A program made the position numbers and the translations under genes. Under the pieces are notes generated by a model that was not told where the DNA came from, searched no databases, and saw only the letters and a program-made list of their open reading frames with translations. Positions 49,398 to 56,634 of a stretch of 64,000 nt of DNA are shown here, one piece after another; position 1 is the first letter of the stretch; each line of letters opens with the position of its first letter. This DNA is from Escherichia coli (GTDB lineage Bacteria > Pseudomonadota > Gammaproteobacteria > Enterobacterales > Enterobacteriaceae). The DNA lies in the NCBI RefSeq assembly GCF_009931435.1, contig NZ_CP043414.1, one strand, 5' to 3'.

Positions 49398-49485
49398 GGA
49401 AGTGTGGCCGAGCGGTTGAAGGCACCGGTCTTGAAAACCGGCGACCCGAAAGGGTTCCAGAGTTCGAATCTCTGCGCTTCCGCCA
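49398..49485 (+). tRNA. serT: tRNA-Ser (anticodon UGA)
   Basis: 88-nt sequence GGAAGTGTGGCCGAGCGG...TTCGAATCTCTGCGCTTCCGCCA with long variable arm and cuUGAaa anticodon loop. Confidence 0.95.
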
Positions 49486-49976: not shown

Positions 49977-50507
49977 TTACTGCTCTGGCTTTTGTGGCCA
50001 TTCCGGGTTCGCTGAATCCACCCGGCTGAGCAGGACGCTGTAACGCTCCCATGCCGACAGCCGGGTTCGCTCTTCTTCCGTGGCCATATTCAGCCTTACT
50101 GACCGCTCCAGAAGCCGGATGATGGCATCTGCTTCACTGAGCAGCGTGGCCTTGCGTTGCTCTGTCTGTCTGTTGACTTCCTCTGGCGAATACTCACGTT
50201 TCCTCACCTGACCGTCCAGATACATCCACTGCCCCGAATCGTCTGCACGGCGGTTCGCCGTTATATCTGCCACCTCAACAACACTTAATCCCGCCGGATT
50301 AAGCGTTGAGGCATCCCGGGTGATGGCAACGATAATATTGTTATCATCGTAAGCCATCTTTATTGTGTCTTTCTGAAAGTTACTCACTTCTTCATACCAG
50401 TTTCTTCCGTCCTCTGAAAACAACCAGATAACATCAAAATTTTTTGTCAGTTGATACTGAGCAACGGTTTTGGGATTACCTGCTGTAATATTTTTTAAGT
50501 GCTGCAT
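49977..50507 (-). CDS. tfa: Tail fibre assembly protein Tfa
   Basis: 176-aa ORF immediately downstream of the tail fibre gene. Confidence 0.8.
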
Positions 50508-50510
50508 TAC

Positions 50511-53096
50511 TTATACCTGCGATACGTTAAACCATGTGCCGTTTATGTATTTTTGCACCGGCCGGTAAACCGCTGAGTTATCGCCATCAGCATCCCCGAC
50601 AAGACAAAGCCCCGTAATGACATGGCCGGACTTCTCATACGTCACGCCTTTTTGCATGCCCTGAACAACACGCGTACCCAGCCGGATATCCCTGACATAG
50701 CGGATATCAAAATTACTGTAATCGGAAGGATTAACGCGCCCGGACACATTCAGCCCTTTACTGACCTGAATGCTGCCGTTTGTAAAGCGCATTACACGTG
50801 CGTTACCGGCGTAAACATCAAGATTACCGTCGCCGTTTTGTTTCAGGCCTGTGTCGCCCCTCCCCAGCGCAAGTGAATGACCGCCCAGCGTATTCTGTGC
50901 ACCGATACCCACCGCGCCATCCAGGGTCCCGCCCGTTGTCGTGAACAGACGCTCCCAGTCCGCCTCAAAGCCATAGCCATCACGGGCGGAGCGGTAAAAT
51001 ATCCCGCCATTCCGGTAATTCACCCGAAACTGGACCGCAGGGCAGCTGCCTTCCCCTGTATTAAAATGAAGAATTAAGGATGATGCGCCACCATCCTGTG
51101 CACAATAAGCGCCACTGTCCAGGTTCCAGGCGACGGCATCTGTATCGGCGAGCGTTTCCCCGGTTTTTCCCAGCGCAAAGGCCGGTGGCTTGTTTTTCGT
51201 GTTGTAGTCACGACGCCAGCCAGGGGAATAACCATCACCATGATTAATATAGGTAAACTGCGCATTCGCCGTTCCACTTCCGCTGGATGTTGTCGGTGTG
51301 GTTATGCGGATCGTCATCGCTGACTTTATCCCCATCACCTCAATGACAGCGCCGGCGAGATGAATATTTCCGCAGCCCGTATCCGTGATGATTTTATTAT
51401 TACCGTAAGACCAGGAGCCCTTGCACATCCAGTATGGGTGGTTAAATGCGCCCTGAGACTCCAGCCACCCGATAAACTGTGCGGTCGTCCAGTCTCCTGT
51501 CGTTGTGCTTACGGCCCCACCGAAAGCACGGCAGGCACCAATATTTTTCGTAAAGGTGTCTTTGTCGGGGACATCCGCACCGTTCTTATCTTTCTGCAGT
51601 CGTTTCTCAGCATTCTCACAGGCGGCTTTTACTGCCTTTGGTGTTGCCGCCAGTGACTCGGAAGTGCTGTTGGTTGCACTGCTGAGCTGGACTATCCCCT
51701 TTTTCGTCGTGCTCGCATCCTCAAGCGCCACGGCAGACGCAATATCCTCCGCCCGTTTTGCCGCAGTCTCAGCGCGCGTTGCCGCGGATTCTGCCGTGCT
51801 TTTGCTCTGTGCTGCCGCTGTCGCACTGCCAGCTGCCTCTGTCGCCTTCGCGGATGCCGTCGTGGCACTGCCCTGCGCCTCTGACGCCAGCCTTGCCGCC
51901 TCATCTTTTGAAGCTGACGCCGATGATGCTGATGACGCCGCCGAACTGGCGGACGATACGGCTGCCGTTTTTGAGGATTCTGCGCTGGTTTCCGACGCTT
52001 TCGCGTTCGTCTCGGATGTCCTCGCAGCGGAAGCAGACCTCGCTGCTGCAGTGGCCTGTTCAGTGGCTTCGCCAGCCTTCGTTGTGGCTGCTGAAGCGGA
52101 CGATGCGGCGCTTTCTGCCGATTTTCCGGCGGCGGTGGCACTGGCTGAGGCCTCCTCCGCTTTAACTGACGCCTCACGGGACGATGATGCAGCGGCAGTT
52201 TCTGAGCCTGCTGCTGCGGAGGCACTCTGTTCCGCTGCCGTTTCAGAAGACCTGGCGTTCGTCTCAGACGTCTTTGCCGCCTTCGCGGAATTTCCTGCCG
52301 CCGTTGCCGAGGAAGCTGCGCTACCGGCGCTCGAGGCTGCGCTCGTTTCTGATGATTTTGCCGCCTCTTTTGAGGCCGCCGCATCCCTGGCTGACGTGGC
52401 AGCTTCTGACGCTTTCGTGGTCGCGGTGGATGCAGACGTGGCGGCTGATTGTTGTGACGCTGCCGCATTCGTTTCTGACGTTTTCGCGGCACCGGCACTG
52501 GTGGCCGCCGCGCTTTTTGAGGACTCTGCAGCGGCAGCACTTTTTGATGCCTCAGCGGCCTTTGCTGAGGCTGTTTCTGCGCCGGAAGACGCTTCCTGAG
52601 CCGACGTCGCAGCCTGTCCGGCGGACGTGCTGGCGGCGCGTGCTGAGTCCGCAGCATCAGTCGCATGGGTTGCCGCCTCACGGGCTGATGTACCGGCATC
52701 GCTGGCGGATTTTTTCGCGGCTGCCGTGTTCTGTGCCACTGCGGACGCGTTACGCGCCACCTCTTCCACCATCAGTTCAAAACGGCGCAGTGCCTCCGGA
52801 CGGGCATCATCCTCCGTCATGGCACCGAGAAAATCATTCAGCGTACCGGGTTGGGAATCTTCATACACGGTGATGGTCCCGGCATGTGAAGGCGGAAAAC
52901 CGTCAACCAGCAGGATGACACCGTACTGGCCGTACTCAACGTCCATACTGTAACGCCCGGCTTCATCCGGATTTTCTGAGGCCACCGTGTTCACCACCAC
53001 CGTGGTACTGTTACGTTTTGCTTTCAGCTGAATGGTGCAGTTCTGTACCGGTTTACCTGCACCGTCTTTCAGCACGCCTGAAATCTTTACTGCCAT
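50511..53096 (-). CDS. stf: Side tail fibre protein Stf with long Ala/Ser/Thr-rich repeat region
   Basis: 861-aa ORF; conserved N-terminus (MAVKISGVLKDGAGKPV...), central about 350 aa low-complexity repeats, distinct C-terminal domain. Confidence 0.85.
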   Translation of the reverse strand: MAVKISGVLKDGAGKPVQNCTIQLKAKRNSTTVVVNTVASENPDEAGRYSMDVEYGQYGVILLVDGFPPSHAGTITVYEDSQPGTLNDFLGAMTEDDARPEALRRFELMVEEVARNASAVAQNTAAAKKSASDAGTSAREAATHATDAADSARAASTSAGQAATSAQEASSGAETASAKAAEASKSAAAAESSKSAAATSAGAAKTSETNAAASQQSAATSASTATTKASEAATSARDAAASKEAAKSSETSAASSAGSAASSATAAGNSAKAAKTSETNARSSETAAEQSASAAAGSETAAASSSREASVKAEEASASATAAGKSAESAASSASAATTKAGEATEQATAAARSASAARTSETNAKASETSAESSKTAAVSSASSAASSASSASASKDEAARLASEAQGSATTASAKATEAAGSATAAAQSKSTAESAATRAETAAKRAEDIASAVALEDASTTKKGIVQLSSATNSTSESLAATPKAVKAACENAEKRLQKDKNGADVPDKDTFTKNIGACRAFGGAVSTTTGDWTTAQFIGWLESQGAFNHPYWMCKGSWSYGNNKIITDTGCGNIHLAGAVIEVMGIKSAMTIRITTPTTSSGSGTANAQFTYINHGDGYSPGWRRDYNTKNKPPAFALGKTGETLADTDAVAWNLDSGAYCAQDGGASSLILHFNTGEGSCPAVQFRVNYRNGGIFYRSARDGYGFEADWERLFTTTGGTLDGAVGIGAQNTLGGHSLALGRGDTGLKQNGDGNLDVYAGNARVMRFTNGSIQVSKGLNVSGRVNPSDYSNFDIRYVRDIRLGTRVVQGMQKGVTYEKSGHVITGLCLVGDADGDNSAVYRPVQKYINGTWFNVSQV

Positions 53097-53154
53097 ATTC
53101 GTTCCACAAATAAAAAAGGTGCCATTTCTGGCACCCGGTCTGGTTTCTGAACAT

Positions 53155-56100
53155 TCAACTGATACTGATACCGGCTGTGGATTTCTTCATCACCACAACC
53201 AGCAAATCGCTGATGCTTGCCGTGGGATACCAGTCATTCACCAGCCACGCTGATACCGAAAACTCCAGCGTCATGTGACCGCGACCCGCTGGCATATCAA
53301 TCACACCTGTATAAATCAGCGTATTATCCAGCGCGGTACGGTTATAAATTTCAGCACCGTTTTTCCGCACTATCAGACGGCATGATGAATAAATGTCATT
53401 ATGCTCTCTCTCATGTCTGGCACCGCTGAATGCCACCGCCGGAATGACAATTTGCCGGTCAAAAGGCTGATCGTCATAAACCCTGACGGTGATGGTCCCT
53501 GATGGCCACCGTTCCGGTGCACGGGAGTCCCGGGGGAAAGGTTTACCCACTGTTTTAACGAGATCGCCTTCAATCTGGTTGGCGGACAATTTTCCCAGAA
53601 CCCGACAGTTCTCGTTAATCGTGACGTTGTTGAGCGTCCCGGAGTTCGCATTCACGTTACCGCTGATATCGGCATTTTTAGCAGTCAGCTTTCCGTCCGG
53701 TGTCAGGGAAAAGGCCGGGGGATTGCCGCCGCTGGTAATGGTGGGGGCCGTCAGGCGCTTCAGGAACACGTCGTTCATGAATATCTGATCGCCCTGACCA
53801 ACAAACATCGGTTTTGTGTTGCCATTCGCAGGATTAACCATCGCAATCCTGTCCGCCGCCAGCAGCACCTGACTCTGCATGCCGTCAGGGGTGTTCTCAA
53901 TACCGGCACCAATACCCGCGATATAAAGGCGTCCGTCCTGCATCTGCTGCAGCTTCACAGCCCACATGCTGTTCAGGTTATTATTTGTATCAACCTGAAC
54001 CTTCTGTATCTGCTGAATTGCCGCACTCTGGTCTTCCAGTTTCTTATTGACGGTCTGTGTGATTTCATTGCTGACATCCGTAATGGACGTCCTGATTTCA
54101 GCCAGATCAGGCGCCAGCTGACCGTTATCAATCTGCGTCCACAGCTCCTGAGCCAGATGGGTTTTTCCTATCTCGCCTTTGAAAAAATCCAGATAGCCGG
54201 ATGCATCATCACTCGGCTGACCAACAGCCTCCACGAATGCCGATTTGCCAACGGTGTTCACACTGCGGATATAAAAGTAATAATCATGGCCCGGTTTGAT
54301 ATTGATACTGGCGGCTATCCAGTACAGCGCCGTGCCAAGATAGCGTGCTGTGGTTTCAACCTGCCTGATATCCGCAATCCGCTTTTCCGAGAACCAGAAC
54401 TCAAACTGTACCGTCGGATCATAAACCGCAAGATGCGGCGTGGCGGTTATCTGAAAATAGCCCGGCGTCAGCTCAATCCGCGACGGCGCTGCCGGTGCGG
54501 CAATCCGGAACGATACCGACGCCGGATCGCCCTGCTGCCCCCACGCATTTACTGCCCGGACTGTCAGCCTGTAGTTCCCCAGCGCCAGTTGTGTGAAGCG
54601 GTAAGTGGTTTCCGTCGTCCGGGCCGTGCTGACCAGCCACTCACTGCCGTCATCCGCTGTTACGGTCAGACGGAGCAGGAAGCTCACGCCCTTCACCACC
54701 TTCGGCGTGTCCCAGCGCGCCAGCACCTGATATTCCCCGCTGTCTGCGGTGACTTCGGCAGTCAGGTGCTGCACCGCTGGCGGCGTGACACCATTCACCG
54801 TGCCGCTCTGGTCGCCGTCAAAGTGCGCCCCGTTATCCACGATGGCTTCTTTTTCCGGTACATGCTGCACGGCGGTGATGGCATACGTGCCGTCGTCGTT
54901 CTCACGGATACTCACGCAGCGGAACAGGCGCTGGCGCAGCGTCGGCAGCTTCAGCCCCCACACGCTGTATTCAGCAACGCCGTCAGGAACACGGCTCACT
55001 TTCACCTTCACGCCGTCGGTGACGGACTGAACCTCCACGCTGACCGGATTGCCACTTCCGTCAACCAGGCTTATCAGCGTGGTACCGGAGGATGGCAGCG
55101 TGATTTCACGGTCGAGCGTCAGCGTCCGGGTCTGGCTGTTTACCGCCAGCACGCGCCCGCCGGTGCTGATACCGGCATAGTCATCATCACAGATTTCAAT
55201 GACATCGCCCGGCACATGGCGAAGCCCTTCTGCGCCCACGCTGAAGTCCACGGTCTGCGTTTCCAGCAGTTCTGTTTTAATCAGCCATAGCCCGGCGCGA
55301 TGTGCCTGCCCCCGGCTGGTACAGCCAAAGGCATCCATCTTCGTGACGTTACGACCGTAACGGGCAATGGCCTGCGTGTCCTCCACAAGCTCTGTCGCCG
55401 TCTCCCAGCCGTTATTCGGGTCAATCCAGTTCACCTCAACGGCATTATGGCGGTCCTTCAGGGCGCTGAAGCTGTAGCGGAACGGCGCGCCATCATCCGG
55501 CATCACCACATTACTGCGGTTATAGGTCCACACCTTATCTGATGGTCGGTCCTGCACGAACGTCAGCGTCTGCCCGTTCCATACCGGCATACAGCGCATC
55601 GCCGAGCAGAAATCACTGAGCACATCCCACGCCTTGCGCTGTGTTGTCAGGTAAGCGTTACAGGTGATGCGCGGCTCCGTGCCACCAAAGCCATCCGGCA
55701 CCGACTGGTCGCAATTCTGGCCGATGACATACAGCGCCCATTTGTCCACATCCGCCGCACCGAGACGCTTCCCCATGCCGTAGCGCGGATGGGTCAGCAT
55801 ATCCCACAGACACCAGGCCATGTTGTTGCTGTATGCCGGTTTAAACGTCCCGTCCCAGATACCGCTGTATTGCCGCGTCTGCGGGTTATAGTTCGACGGC
55901 ACCTGCAGAATGCGCCCGCGAAGATGATAATTACGGCTCACCTGCTGGCTGCCGAACTGCTCCGAATCCACCTGCACGCCGACCAGTGCCGTGTTCGGGT
56001 AGCACTGTTTCACATCGATGATTTCGGTGTATGACGACCAGAGCGTTTTGTTCTGCAACTGGTCTGTGGTGCTGTCCGGTGTCATCCTGCGCATCCGGAT

Positions 56101-56634
56101 ATTGAACGGGCGCGGCGGCAGGTTATCCACCACCACCGAGGCCAGATACTGCGAGGTGGTTTTGCCCTTAATGGTGATGTCTTTTTCCGTCACCCAGCCA
56201 CCGTTACGCTGTATCTGAACCAGCAGGCGGACTTCCGACGGATTCCTGTCTCCCTTTGAGGTGGTTTCCACCAGTGCCTGTACACCGAAGGTAAAGCGCA
56301 GACGGTCGATGTTTGCCGACGTGATGGTCCGGGTGATCGGCGTGTCATATTTCACTTCCGTACCCAGCACCGTCTCGGAGCCGGAGGATTCAAATCCCTC
56401 CGGTGGTGACTGCTCCTGCTCACCTGCCCGGAACACCACCGTGACGCCGGAGATGTTGGTATTCCCCTCAGTGTCCAGCACCGGCGTACTGTTCAGCAGC
56501 ACACTTTTTAATCCCTCCACCGGACCTTCAACCGGCCCTTCACTGATGGCATCGATCACACTCAGCAACTGCGTGGACTTCAGGTTGTCCTTCGCTTCGC
56601 GCGGGGTATGCCCCTTACTGCTGCCTTTACCCAT
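53155..56634 (-). CDS. J: Tail tip / host specificity protein J
   Basis: 1159-aa ORF starting [21 protein letters not shown], recognisable lambda J-like sequence. Confidence 0.9.

Follow-up and report, generated by a model that had tools for sequence, protein, structure and literature searches.

The Ala/Ser/Thr-rich stretch at positions 51700-52770 (minus strand) of the 64,000-nucleotide piece of Escherichia coli DNA analysed here (the window), which encodes Stf residues about 110-466, is, on the full explanation that we regard as best, very likely the proximal rod in a side tail fibre of the lambda type. In this analysis the assignment is based on heptad periodicity, on the conservation of heptad positions 1, 4 and 5, and on homology to lambda Stf. 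Alpha-helicity, trimeric state and rod geometry would carry over from the literature on homologues. The original prediction of an Ala/Ser/Thr-rich repetitive region in Stf is hereby confirmed, and its interpretation holds in part: the identity of the fibre, the spurious nature of the ORFs in other frames and the modular organisation stand, whereas the repeat unit and the proposed slippage do not. The region is real but ordinary; its biology has already been described, and nothing in it is new.

A heptad array in the side tail fibre

Between aa 106 and 470, Stf is composed of 36.7% Ala, 21.1% Ser, 10.7% Thr, 8.8% Glu and 6.0% Lys. Windows of 30 residues within aa 121-390 contain at most two of the residues I, L, V, M, F, W and Y, and no proline. 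The GC content of the rod DNA amounts to 0.62-0.64 versus 0.43-0.55 in the flanks, in line with the GC-rich repeat DNA that had been predicted. Residue autocorrelation reaches 0.36-0.42 at lags 7, 14 and so on up to 56, compared to 0.215 in 1000 shuffles (z 7.0-10.5), and among the rod residues it is not raised at lags other than multiples of 7. Furthermore, the rod DNA carries a matching 21-nt period (z=6.5 versus codon shuffles). Because of the residue lags at multiples of 7 and this DNA period, the true unit is seven residues. The strong autocorrelation bears out the repetitiveness claimed at the protein level, and all three motifs quoted for it are indeed present (AAKTSETNA at aa 203 and 273, SETSAASSAGSAASSATAAG at 249 and EASASATAAGKSAESAASSASAAT at 315); as repeat units, however, they do not hold, these strings of 9-24 aa being runs of heptads.

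A single phase is kept through all 49 heptads (Table 1), with Ala at position 1 in 47 of the 49, Ser at position 4 in 35 and Ala at position 5 in 34. Amino acid changes among 33 relatives number 4 at position 1, 72 at position 5 and 102 at position 4, versus 166-252 at each of the others. No higher-order repeat was found, identity being flat at ~0.4 for every heptad lag up to 39 heptads.

Gene context and domain layout

The 861-aa gene product is supported as a lambda-type side tail fibre by the phage_tail_N/StfN collar domain at its N-terminus, and by the order J - stf - tfa as found in the lambdoid tail module, with all three genes on the minus strand, J upstream of stf and tfa downstream. 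Pfam phage_tail_N (PF08400) matches Stf aa 1-134 (E=3.8e-73), and in a PDB sequence search aa 1-94 match the solved Ur-lambda StfN chain 9e7m/9mgh (E=6e-52). Moreover, PHROG tail fibre families match Stf with E-values down to 1e-134, and E. coli UTAK-5 carries a full-length stf copy that is 99.2% identical. The PF08400 domain, the solved StfN match and the J and tfa neighbours all agree with the side tail fibre call made originally. The stretch downstream of tfa as far as hyaA showed only a tRNA-Ser; the near-identical locus annotates a DinI-like gene.

Table 1. Features of the side tail fibre locus, with positions in the window
Feature	Position	Strand	Stf residues	Basis or remark
J, central tail fibre / tip attachment protein	53155..56634	-		six GpJ-specific Pfam domains, E 1e-31 to 2e-43
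stf, side tail fibre gene	50511..53096	-	861 aa + stop	sole long ORF with family support
tfa, tail fibre assembly chaperone	49977..50507	-		Pfam Caudo_TAP E=5.3e-30
N-terminal collar domain, tail attachment	52824..53096	-	aa 1-91	solved StfN match; AF2 beta strands 3-77
Flexible linker	52794..52823	-	aa 92-101	homology to lambda Stf 92-101
Heptad array, 49 unbroken A-x-x-S-A-x-x heptads	51732..52760	-	aa 113-455	autocorrelation, heptad layout
Junction motif TTKKGIVQLSSATNSTSESLAATPKAVKAACEN	51612..51710	-	aa 463-495	common to Mu S and P2 H fibres
Distal fibre / receptor-binding part, Mu S'/P2 H type	50514..51611	-	aa 496-861	PDB and tblastn matches
Antisense ORF, spurious, 364 aa	51505..52599	+		stop depletion
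Spurious ORF, 335 aa	51692-52699	-		other frame
Spurious ORF, 229 aa	52184-52873	+		
Spurious ORF, 135 aa	51758-52165	+		

The limits of the collar domain in Table 1 are borrowed from Yu et al. 2025 (PMC12617516). AF2 pLDDT is below 50 across aa 92-103, and the rod helix probably spans aa 102 to ~460 (positions 51717-52793). At its distal end, the Mu S structure 5yvq matches Stf aa 443-526 (E=1.8e-32), and the junction motif TTKKGIVQLSSATNSTSESLAATPKAVKAACEN, where recombination usually joins the modules, was found in 65 relatives. The distal part is matched by the Mu S/S' structure 8ju3 over aa 495-733 (E=2e-133) and, in tblastn, by Peduovirus P2 (62% identity over aa 459-861) and by a gene labelled H in phage fiAA91-ss (60.9% identity). 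This C-terminal homology, together with the adjoining Caudo_TAP gene, is that of the Mu S/S' - P2 H class. A distinct C-terminal domain had been anticipated, and the homologies support the reading that the C-terminal part of Stf is a separate module. By analogy with Mu and P2, its putative receptor would be the LPS core.

Rod length among relatives

A search for homologues of the N-domain gave only truncated proteins of at most 235 aa, useless for rod measurement; rods were measured instead in IMG/VR loci and in a library of cluster representatives. Rod length ranges from about 13 to 51 heptads among these relatives, with rods of 33-50 heptads in the IMG/VR loci and down to 13 heptads in the cluster representatives. 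The same anchor-to-anchor spacing of 51 heptads occurs in 48 of the 65 relatives that have both anchors, and this length is combined with C-terminal parts from at least 12 different clusters. Rod length does differ among relatives, but most close relatives are identical in spacing and exchange the C-terminal module instead. Anchor-to-anchor distances are congruent modulo 7 in 62 of the 65 proteins; the exceptions are the cluster representatives P0175, P0184 and P0188, which show a one-residue phase shift and one common architecture.

Indels within the array measure 7, 14, 21 or 105 aa. Two 105-aa (15-heptad) blocks, aa 208-312 and aa 304-408, are mutually non-homologous and are each missing from different relatives, which results in two 36-heptad rods of different composition, next to the 51-heptad rod that holds both blocks. 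Internal duplication was considered as the source of the 105-aa indels and rejected, the lag-105 identity of 0.36-0.38 being like that at any heptad lag. That rod length is a selected, quantised trait rather than the outcome of neutral drift appears unlikely to us. If it is true that 15 heptads form a structural quantum, the 105-aa blocks would serve as length cassettes, and candidate meanings of such a quantum would be near-whole supercoil turns, or a reach fitted to tail geometry or to the thickness of surface polysaccharide.

Discussion

Two published systems provide the structural frame for this rod. Yu et al. 2025 (PMC12617516) describe residues 102-393 of lambda Stf as a trimeric proximal coiled coil, on the basis of cryo-EM (including the linkers), cryo-ET and AlphaFold3, and place the trimeric fibres of Ur-lambda Stf on a dodecameric collar at the gpV/gpM junction. 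For E. coli prophage fibres, Ghosh et al. 2012 (PMC3368898) found that the corresponding PfN-PCoil part has an alpha-helical CD spectrum, is trimeric by SEC-MALLS (EPclA), melts reversibly at about 49-52 C and appears as a rod in rotary-shadowing EM, with PCoil length differences that are multiples of seven. That such rods are trimeric coiled coils differing in length by multiples of seven had, in other words, already been published, in 2012 and 2025.

Carried over to the present fibre, these data suggest that the small residues at positions 1 (Ala), 4 (Ser) and 5 (Ala) would form a buried stripe, and that three chains would leave three collar domains via short flexible linkers and zip into a rod. 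The rod would keep the Mu S'/P2 H-type receptor-binding end distant from the tail, so that the fibre would contact the cell surface ahead of J. The heptad register is ambiguous, positions 1/4/5 fitting a/d/e as well as d/g/a, and a coiled-coil core of Ala and Ser alone is atypical for stability. The AF2 monomer contains helices at aa 99-239, 268-386 and 397-457 (321 rod residues), with artificial helix breaks at 240-267 and 387-396. Its mean pLDDT over the full protein is 42.6; it is unusable for a fold search and offers weak support for helicity.

How does this fibre compare to known systems? Lambda Stf is 88% identical over aa 1-303 and has the collar domain (E=6e-52 over aa 1-94), the heptad phase and the conserved GIVQLSSATNSTSE motif after the rod in common with it. 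The block of aa 304-408, however, is missing from lambda, so that the rod here exceeds that of lambda by 15 heptads (105 aa, about 15.5 nm). Furthermore, the distal part is Mu S'/P2 H-like, whereas that of lambda is a T4 gp37-like OmpC binder, and, unlike in lambda, J is followed by stf without an intervening lom gene. The PCoil of EPclA/EPclB, collagen-like tail fibre proteins of EHEC prophage, which experiments showed to be an alpha-helical trimer (PMC3368898), likewise follows a PfN (phage_tail_N) domain, is Ala/Ser-rich and almost without Leu and Ile, and varies in length by sevens; here too, an Ala/Ser-rich period of seven residues starts straight after the N-domain, and homologues differ in length by multiples of seven residues. 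In EPclA/EPclB, however, the PCoil measures 109-116 aa, with a collagen triple helix and a PfC domain behind it, whereas the rod described here is about 350 aa long and leads into a Mu S'/P2 H-type domain, collagen repeats being absent.

The PDB sequence search yielded no solved structure covering such a rod, its lone match to the heptad array being residues 172-264 of T7 gp17, which is non-significant (E=0.056). The proximal rod of T7 gp17 (PDB 7boz and others) resembles the array in having Ala/Ser-rich heptads (SAGNSAS-AAHQSEV-NAENSAT) after a tail-attachment domain, but the stretch is shorter, at about 90 aa. Outside phages, alanine-rich heptad coiled coils with other functions occur in honeybee silk and in Plasmodium MSP3. 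This is a matter of analogy and not of homology, and oligomeric states differ, honeybee silk being described as a heterotetramer.

The extreme low complexity of the rod, the absence of Pfam families over aa 135-460 and an AF2 pLDDT mostly between 40 and 65 in the rod would all be compatible with a disordered Ala/Ser/Thr linker, serving as a flexible tether. Yet a disordered linker would not hold one heptad phase across 49 repeats, keep position 1 near-invariant or confine indels to multiples of 7. In homologues, CD and SEC-MALLS identify this region as a helical trimer, and EM and cryo-ET show it as a rod. All this makes a tether extremely improbable. A slippage-prone tandem DNA repeat, that is, a contingency-type locus that frequently alters fibre length, would account for rods that vary among relatives always in repeat units and for the detectable 21-nt periodicity. 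However, TRF reported no tandem arrays on 50400-53200 at a minimum score of 30, and the longest exact repeat of 12 nt is no longer than expected from codon shuffles (mean 12.6). Direct-repeat families in the rod DNA are only 65-76% identical over 15-34 nt, and third-codon-position identity between heptads is 0.23-0.36, near the random level of 0.25. By TRF, exact repeats and third positions, the rod DNA has no head-to-tail copies alike enough to misalign. Nor was frequent copy-number change with repeat homology at the junctions observed: direct-repeat microhomology at indel junctions is 0-5 nt only, anchor spacing is equal in 48/65 relatives, and both 105-aa differences drop non-homologous blocks, which fits mosaic exchange. 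With no tandem repeat in the DNA, and with third positions of codons that are random from heptad to heptad, expansion by slippage is unsupported, and we consider it very unlikely. The proneness to expansion and contraction that was originally proposed therefore fails, as the DNA offers no slippage substrate and the rod is not hypervariable. Instead, length variation very probably has its origin in in-phase indels, which are rare, and in mosaic recombination among stf alleles that have diverged. In E. coli genomes, most matches to stf stop at aa about 490-512; the conserved N-domain and rod mostly act as the homology arm of recombination, and the joint lies beyond that point. Of the recombination envisaged for the repeat shaft, the exchange of modules stands, but the joint mostly lies after aa about 490-512 and not inside the rod.

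The coding content of the rod DNA raises a separate matter. ORFs of 364, 335 and 229 aa are present in other frames, and the lambda reference annotates antisense orf206b inside orf-401, the equivalent of the 364-aa ORF, both of which would speak for a long ORF (e.g. 51505-52599 on the plus strand, like orf206b) being a real overlapping gene. Three alternative frames across the 1029-nt array contain 0, 1 and 1 stops, compared to about 8 per frame in mononucleotide shuffles, but this scarcity follows from composition: the frames are open because the coding sequence is GCN/TCN/ACN-rich and Leu-free. Whereas a second coding frame would be expected to constrain position 3 of the stf codons, 65% of the nucleotide differences among the 33 relatives fall there, and the differing codons comprise 1900 synonymous versus 1041 nonsynonymous cases. 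By this pattern of substitutions, selection acts on the stf frame alone. In addition, the near-identical locus has no overlapping or antisense gene in its RefSeq annotation. A real gene in one of these frames has next to no likelihood, and the spurious ORFs recognised at the outset are indeed artefacts of composition, both by stop counts and by substitution pattern.

In practical terms, the rod accounts for three nuisances. N-domain and rod DNA is present in 4923 of the 5426 complete E. coli genomes, in up to 14 places per genome (15,821 copies overall), and such dispersed multi-copy DNA probably breaks short-read assemblies. This DNA also provides a homology arm for the exchange of receptor-binding modules between prophages. 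For annotation, the rod yields long false ORFs in three frames, one of which has entered the lambda reference. Moreover, tblastn covers at most 47% of the query, and 36% for the closest lambda-type Stf matches, because BLAST low-complexity masking conceals the rod. For fibre engineering, rod length is to be altered in whole heptads, and the natural swap joint for receptor-binding ends is the conserved motif right after the rod.

Results

The repeat in the Ala/Ser/Thr-rich region of the side tail fibre Stf is a structural heptad, very probably that of a trimeric coiled-coil rod, a structure that is already known. The interval 51700-52770, in which the original prediction had placed these repeats, codes for Stf residues 110-466, and the identification of the gene as stf proved correct: residues 1-134 match Pfam phage_tail_N (E=3.8e-73), residues 1-94 match the N-terminal collar domain whose structure was solved for Ur-lambda Stf (9e7m/9mgh, E=6e-52), and the gene has a lambda J homologue upstream and a Caudo_TAP gene downstream. 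The gap between J and stf is just 58 nt (53097-53154), whereas in lambda it is occupied by lom. About 490 nt separate tfa from tRNA-Ser(UGA), which is followed by hyaA according to the RefSeq annotation of matching genomes; stf-tfa is therefore the outermost part of the prophage, beside a tRNA gene that is a likely integration site. In E. coli UTAK-5, a 99.2% identical stf adjoins btsS/btsR, and both stf and tfa are annotated there as pseudogenes.

Features of the stf region, including the two 105-aa blocks of the rod
Feature	Window coordinates	Strand	Stf residues	Remarks
tRNA-Ser(UGA)	49398-49485	+		
tfa, tail fibre assembly gene	49977-50507			Pfam Caudo_TAP; downstream of stf
stf	50511-53096	-	861-aa ORF	only ORF of the interval that is credible as a gene
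lambda J homologue	53155-56634			six GpJ-specific Pfam domains; upstream of stf
Block without counterpart in lambda and locus L018	51873-52187		304-408	15 heptads
Block without counterpart in loci L049 and L017	52161-52475		208-312	15 heptads

Residues 106-470 consist of 36.7% Ala, 21.1% Ser, 10.7% Thr, 8.8% Glu and 6.0% Lys, and every 30-aa window within residues 121-390 holds at most two large hydrophobic residues and no proline; the GC content is 0.62-0.64 in the repeat region versus 0.43-0.55 in its flanks. The repetition is real and statistically strong. Residue autocorrelation reaches 0.36-0.42 at all multiples of 7 up to lag 56, compared to 0.215 in shuffles (n=1000; z=7.0-10.5), and no rise was seen at other lags. 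When laid out in rows of seven, the sequence keeps to the pattern A-x-x-S-A-x-x without any change of phase between V113 and about A455, giving 49 heptads without a stutter, with Ala at position 1 in 47, Ser at position 4 in 35 and Ala at position 5 in 34 of them. No unit larger than the heptad was found, identity staying level near 0.4 from one heptad lag to the next, as far as 39 heptads; therefore the units of 9-24 residues proposed originally are mere runs of heptads, and the true unit has 7 residues. All three motifs quoted for those units are present in Stf. The DNA carries a 21-nt period (z=6.5 versus codon shuffles), and its weak direct-repeat families are mostly spaced by multiples of 21 nt.

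The query was compared with 33 distinct relatives of identical architecture, comparisons that are not phylogenetically independent. In the stf frame, 65% of the nucleotide differences fall on third codon positions, and the differing codons are synonymous in 1900 and nonsynonymous in 1041 cases. Heptad positions 1, 5 and 4 show 4, 72 and 102 amino-acid changes, respectively, and each of the other four shows 166-252, the pattern to be expected of a buried 1/4/5 coiled-coil stripe; judged from sequence, this stripe could be either a/d/e or d/g/a. Three of the five other frames contain only 0-1 stops over the 1029-nt array, where about 8 are expected, leaving ORFs of 364, 335, 229 and 135 aa. Selection is visible in the stf frame only, in line with the original remark that such ORFs are spurious. 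Lambda orf206b, a 'hypothetical protein' annotated antisense within orf-401 (L001:5148-5768; NC_001416 20147-20767), lies in the equivalent coiled-coil-coding region and is probably a composition artefact as well, because the counterpart of that region here has stop-free alternative frames.

Discussion

The low-complexity region that follows PfN in side tail fibres of E. coli prophages was named PCoil by Ghosh et al. (2012, PMC3368898), who used CD, SEC-MALLS and rotary-shadowing EM to show PfN-PCoil to be an alpha-helical trimer whose tail is rod-like and which melts reversibly at ~49-52 C. The same authors noted that PCoil domains vary in length in steps of seven residues. More recently, Ur-lambda was studied by cryo-EM, cryo-ET and AlphaFold3, revealing a dodecameric collar that anchors four trimeric fibres, in which the collar domain of gpStf (1-91) is followed by a flexible linker (92-101) and then by a proximal trimeric coiled coil (102-393), with a hinge and a distal part beyond it (Yu et al. 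2025, PMC12617516). Lambda Stf is 88% identical to the query over residues 1-303 and has the same heptad phase. The AF2 monomer of the query, a weak test at a mean pLDDT of 42.6, places helices at 99-239, 268-386 and 397-457, and the breaks between them look like a modelled monomer folding back on itself. No solved structure covering such a rod turned up in a PDB sequence search with the array alone, which gave only T7 gp17 172-264 (E=0.056). A coiled coil rises 0.148 nm per residue, so that the 343-359 residues of the rod would span about 51-53 nm; by the same estimate the lambda rod is ~15.5 nm shorter.

How, then, do these rods come to differ in length? The original prediction held the repeats to be prone to expansion and contraction, and the DNA of the array offers nothing for slippage: TRF reports no tandem array at score 30, the best direct-repeat families reach 65-76% identity over 15-34 nt, exact repeats do not exceed 12 nt (mean maximum in codon shuffles 12.6), and third codon positions match between heptads at 0.23-0.36, with a random level of 0.25. 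Length variation as such does exist. Among 77 Stf ORFs from 80 IMG/VR loci plus lambda, with N-domain identity of at least 95% throughout, the array measures ~33, 35-37, 48 or 50 heptads at constant phase, with indels of 7, 14, 21 or 105 aa relative to the query and microhomology of just 0-5 nt at their junctions. The distance from the N-terminal anchor to GIVQLSSAT is 359, 345, 254, 247 or 135 residues, all congruent modulo 7, in 62/65 proteins. The only exceptions are P0175, P0184 and P0188, representatives of clusters with 13-heptad rods, in each of which the phase shifts once, by one residue, at the junction of the N-terminal heptads with the ...ASSASSAASSASSASASKDE... segment (residues ~120-147 of P0188). 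However, the rod is not hypervariable: 48 of the 65 proteins have exactly the anchor spacing of the query, and rods of this one length are joined to C-terminal parts from no fewer than 12 clusters. The claimed instability is thus unsupported.

The larger differences point to exchange instead. There are two 36-heptad rods of different composition, and a 51-heptad rod contains both 105-aa blocks, which are not homologous. The identity of these blocks to each other is 0.36, no higher than for any in-phase stretches, and that between the two 36-heptad forms falls to 0.4 in their centres; this is characteristic of mosaic exchange among alleles that diverged long ago, with selection retaining only products whose heptad register is intact. 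The identical 15-heptad size of the blocks is accounted for neither by an internal duplication nor by homology at the junctions.

Matches to the stf DNA occur in 4923 of 5426 complete E. coli genomes, at a median of 2 and a maximum of 14 places per genome, and only 32 of them hold at least 80% of the gene. When followed from the 5' end in 25 evenly sampled hits, homology stops at residues ~490-512, directly past the conserved junction motif (463-495), in 13, at residue 639 in 3, within the rod (281) in 2 and at residue 117 in 4. The N-domain and rod therefore chiefly provide a conserved homology arm through which the distal module is exchanged. The modular C-terminus proposed earlier is borne out, as the distal module is related to Mu S/S' (8ju3, E=2e-133) and 62% identical to the phage P2 fibre. 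Rods 81-84% identical to that of the query also occur in two retrieved proteins of other architecture, P0126 and P0127, in which the N-terminus is different or missing and T4 Gp34_trimer domains are present, together with a Peptidase_S74 intramolecular chaperone in P0126; the rod itself is thus exchanged as a module.

The assembly of the repeat region looks sound, given a 99.2% identical full-length copy in a complete genome and an IMG/VR contig with a 98% identical 861-aa protein. Of the database hits to the Stf N-domain, the 120 listed (P0001-P0120) are without exception at most 235 aa long, and many carry the label 'partial', probably because contigs break where the sequence is multi-copy; a few bear a wrong name, 'short-chain fatty acid transporter' or 'peptidase S74', which is annotation noise.

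Heptads of the form A-x-x-S-A/E-x-x are also found in giant proteins of 2000-6226 aa (P0148, P0183, P0191, P0157 and P0159). P0148 (L082:8001-21311), with 4436 aa and no Pfam hits, contains 13 or more arrays of 7-22 heptads, set apart by spacers of ~90-340 aa, some of them mutually similar. Its position in a phage structural module, beside SU10-type genes for portal, capsid and adaptor, suggests a giant fibre of beaded build.
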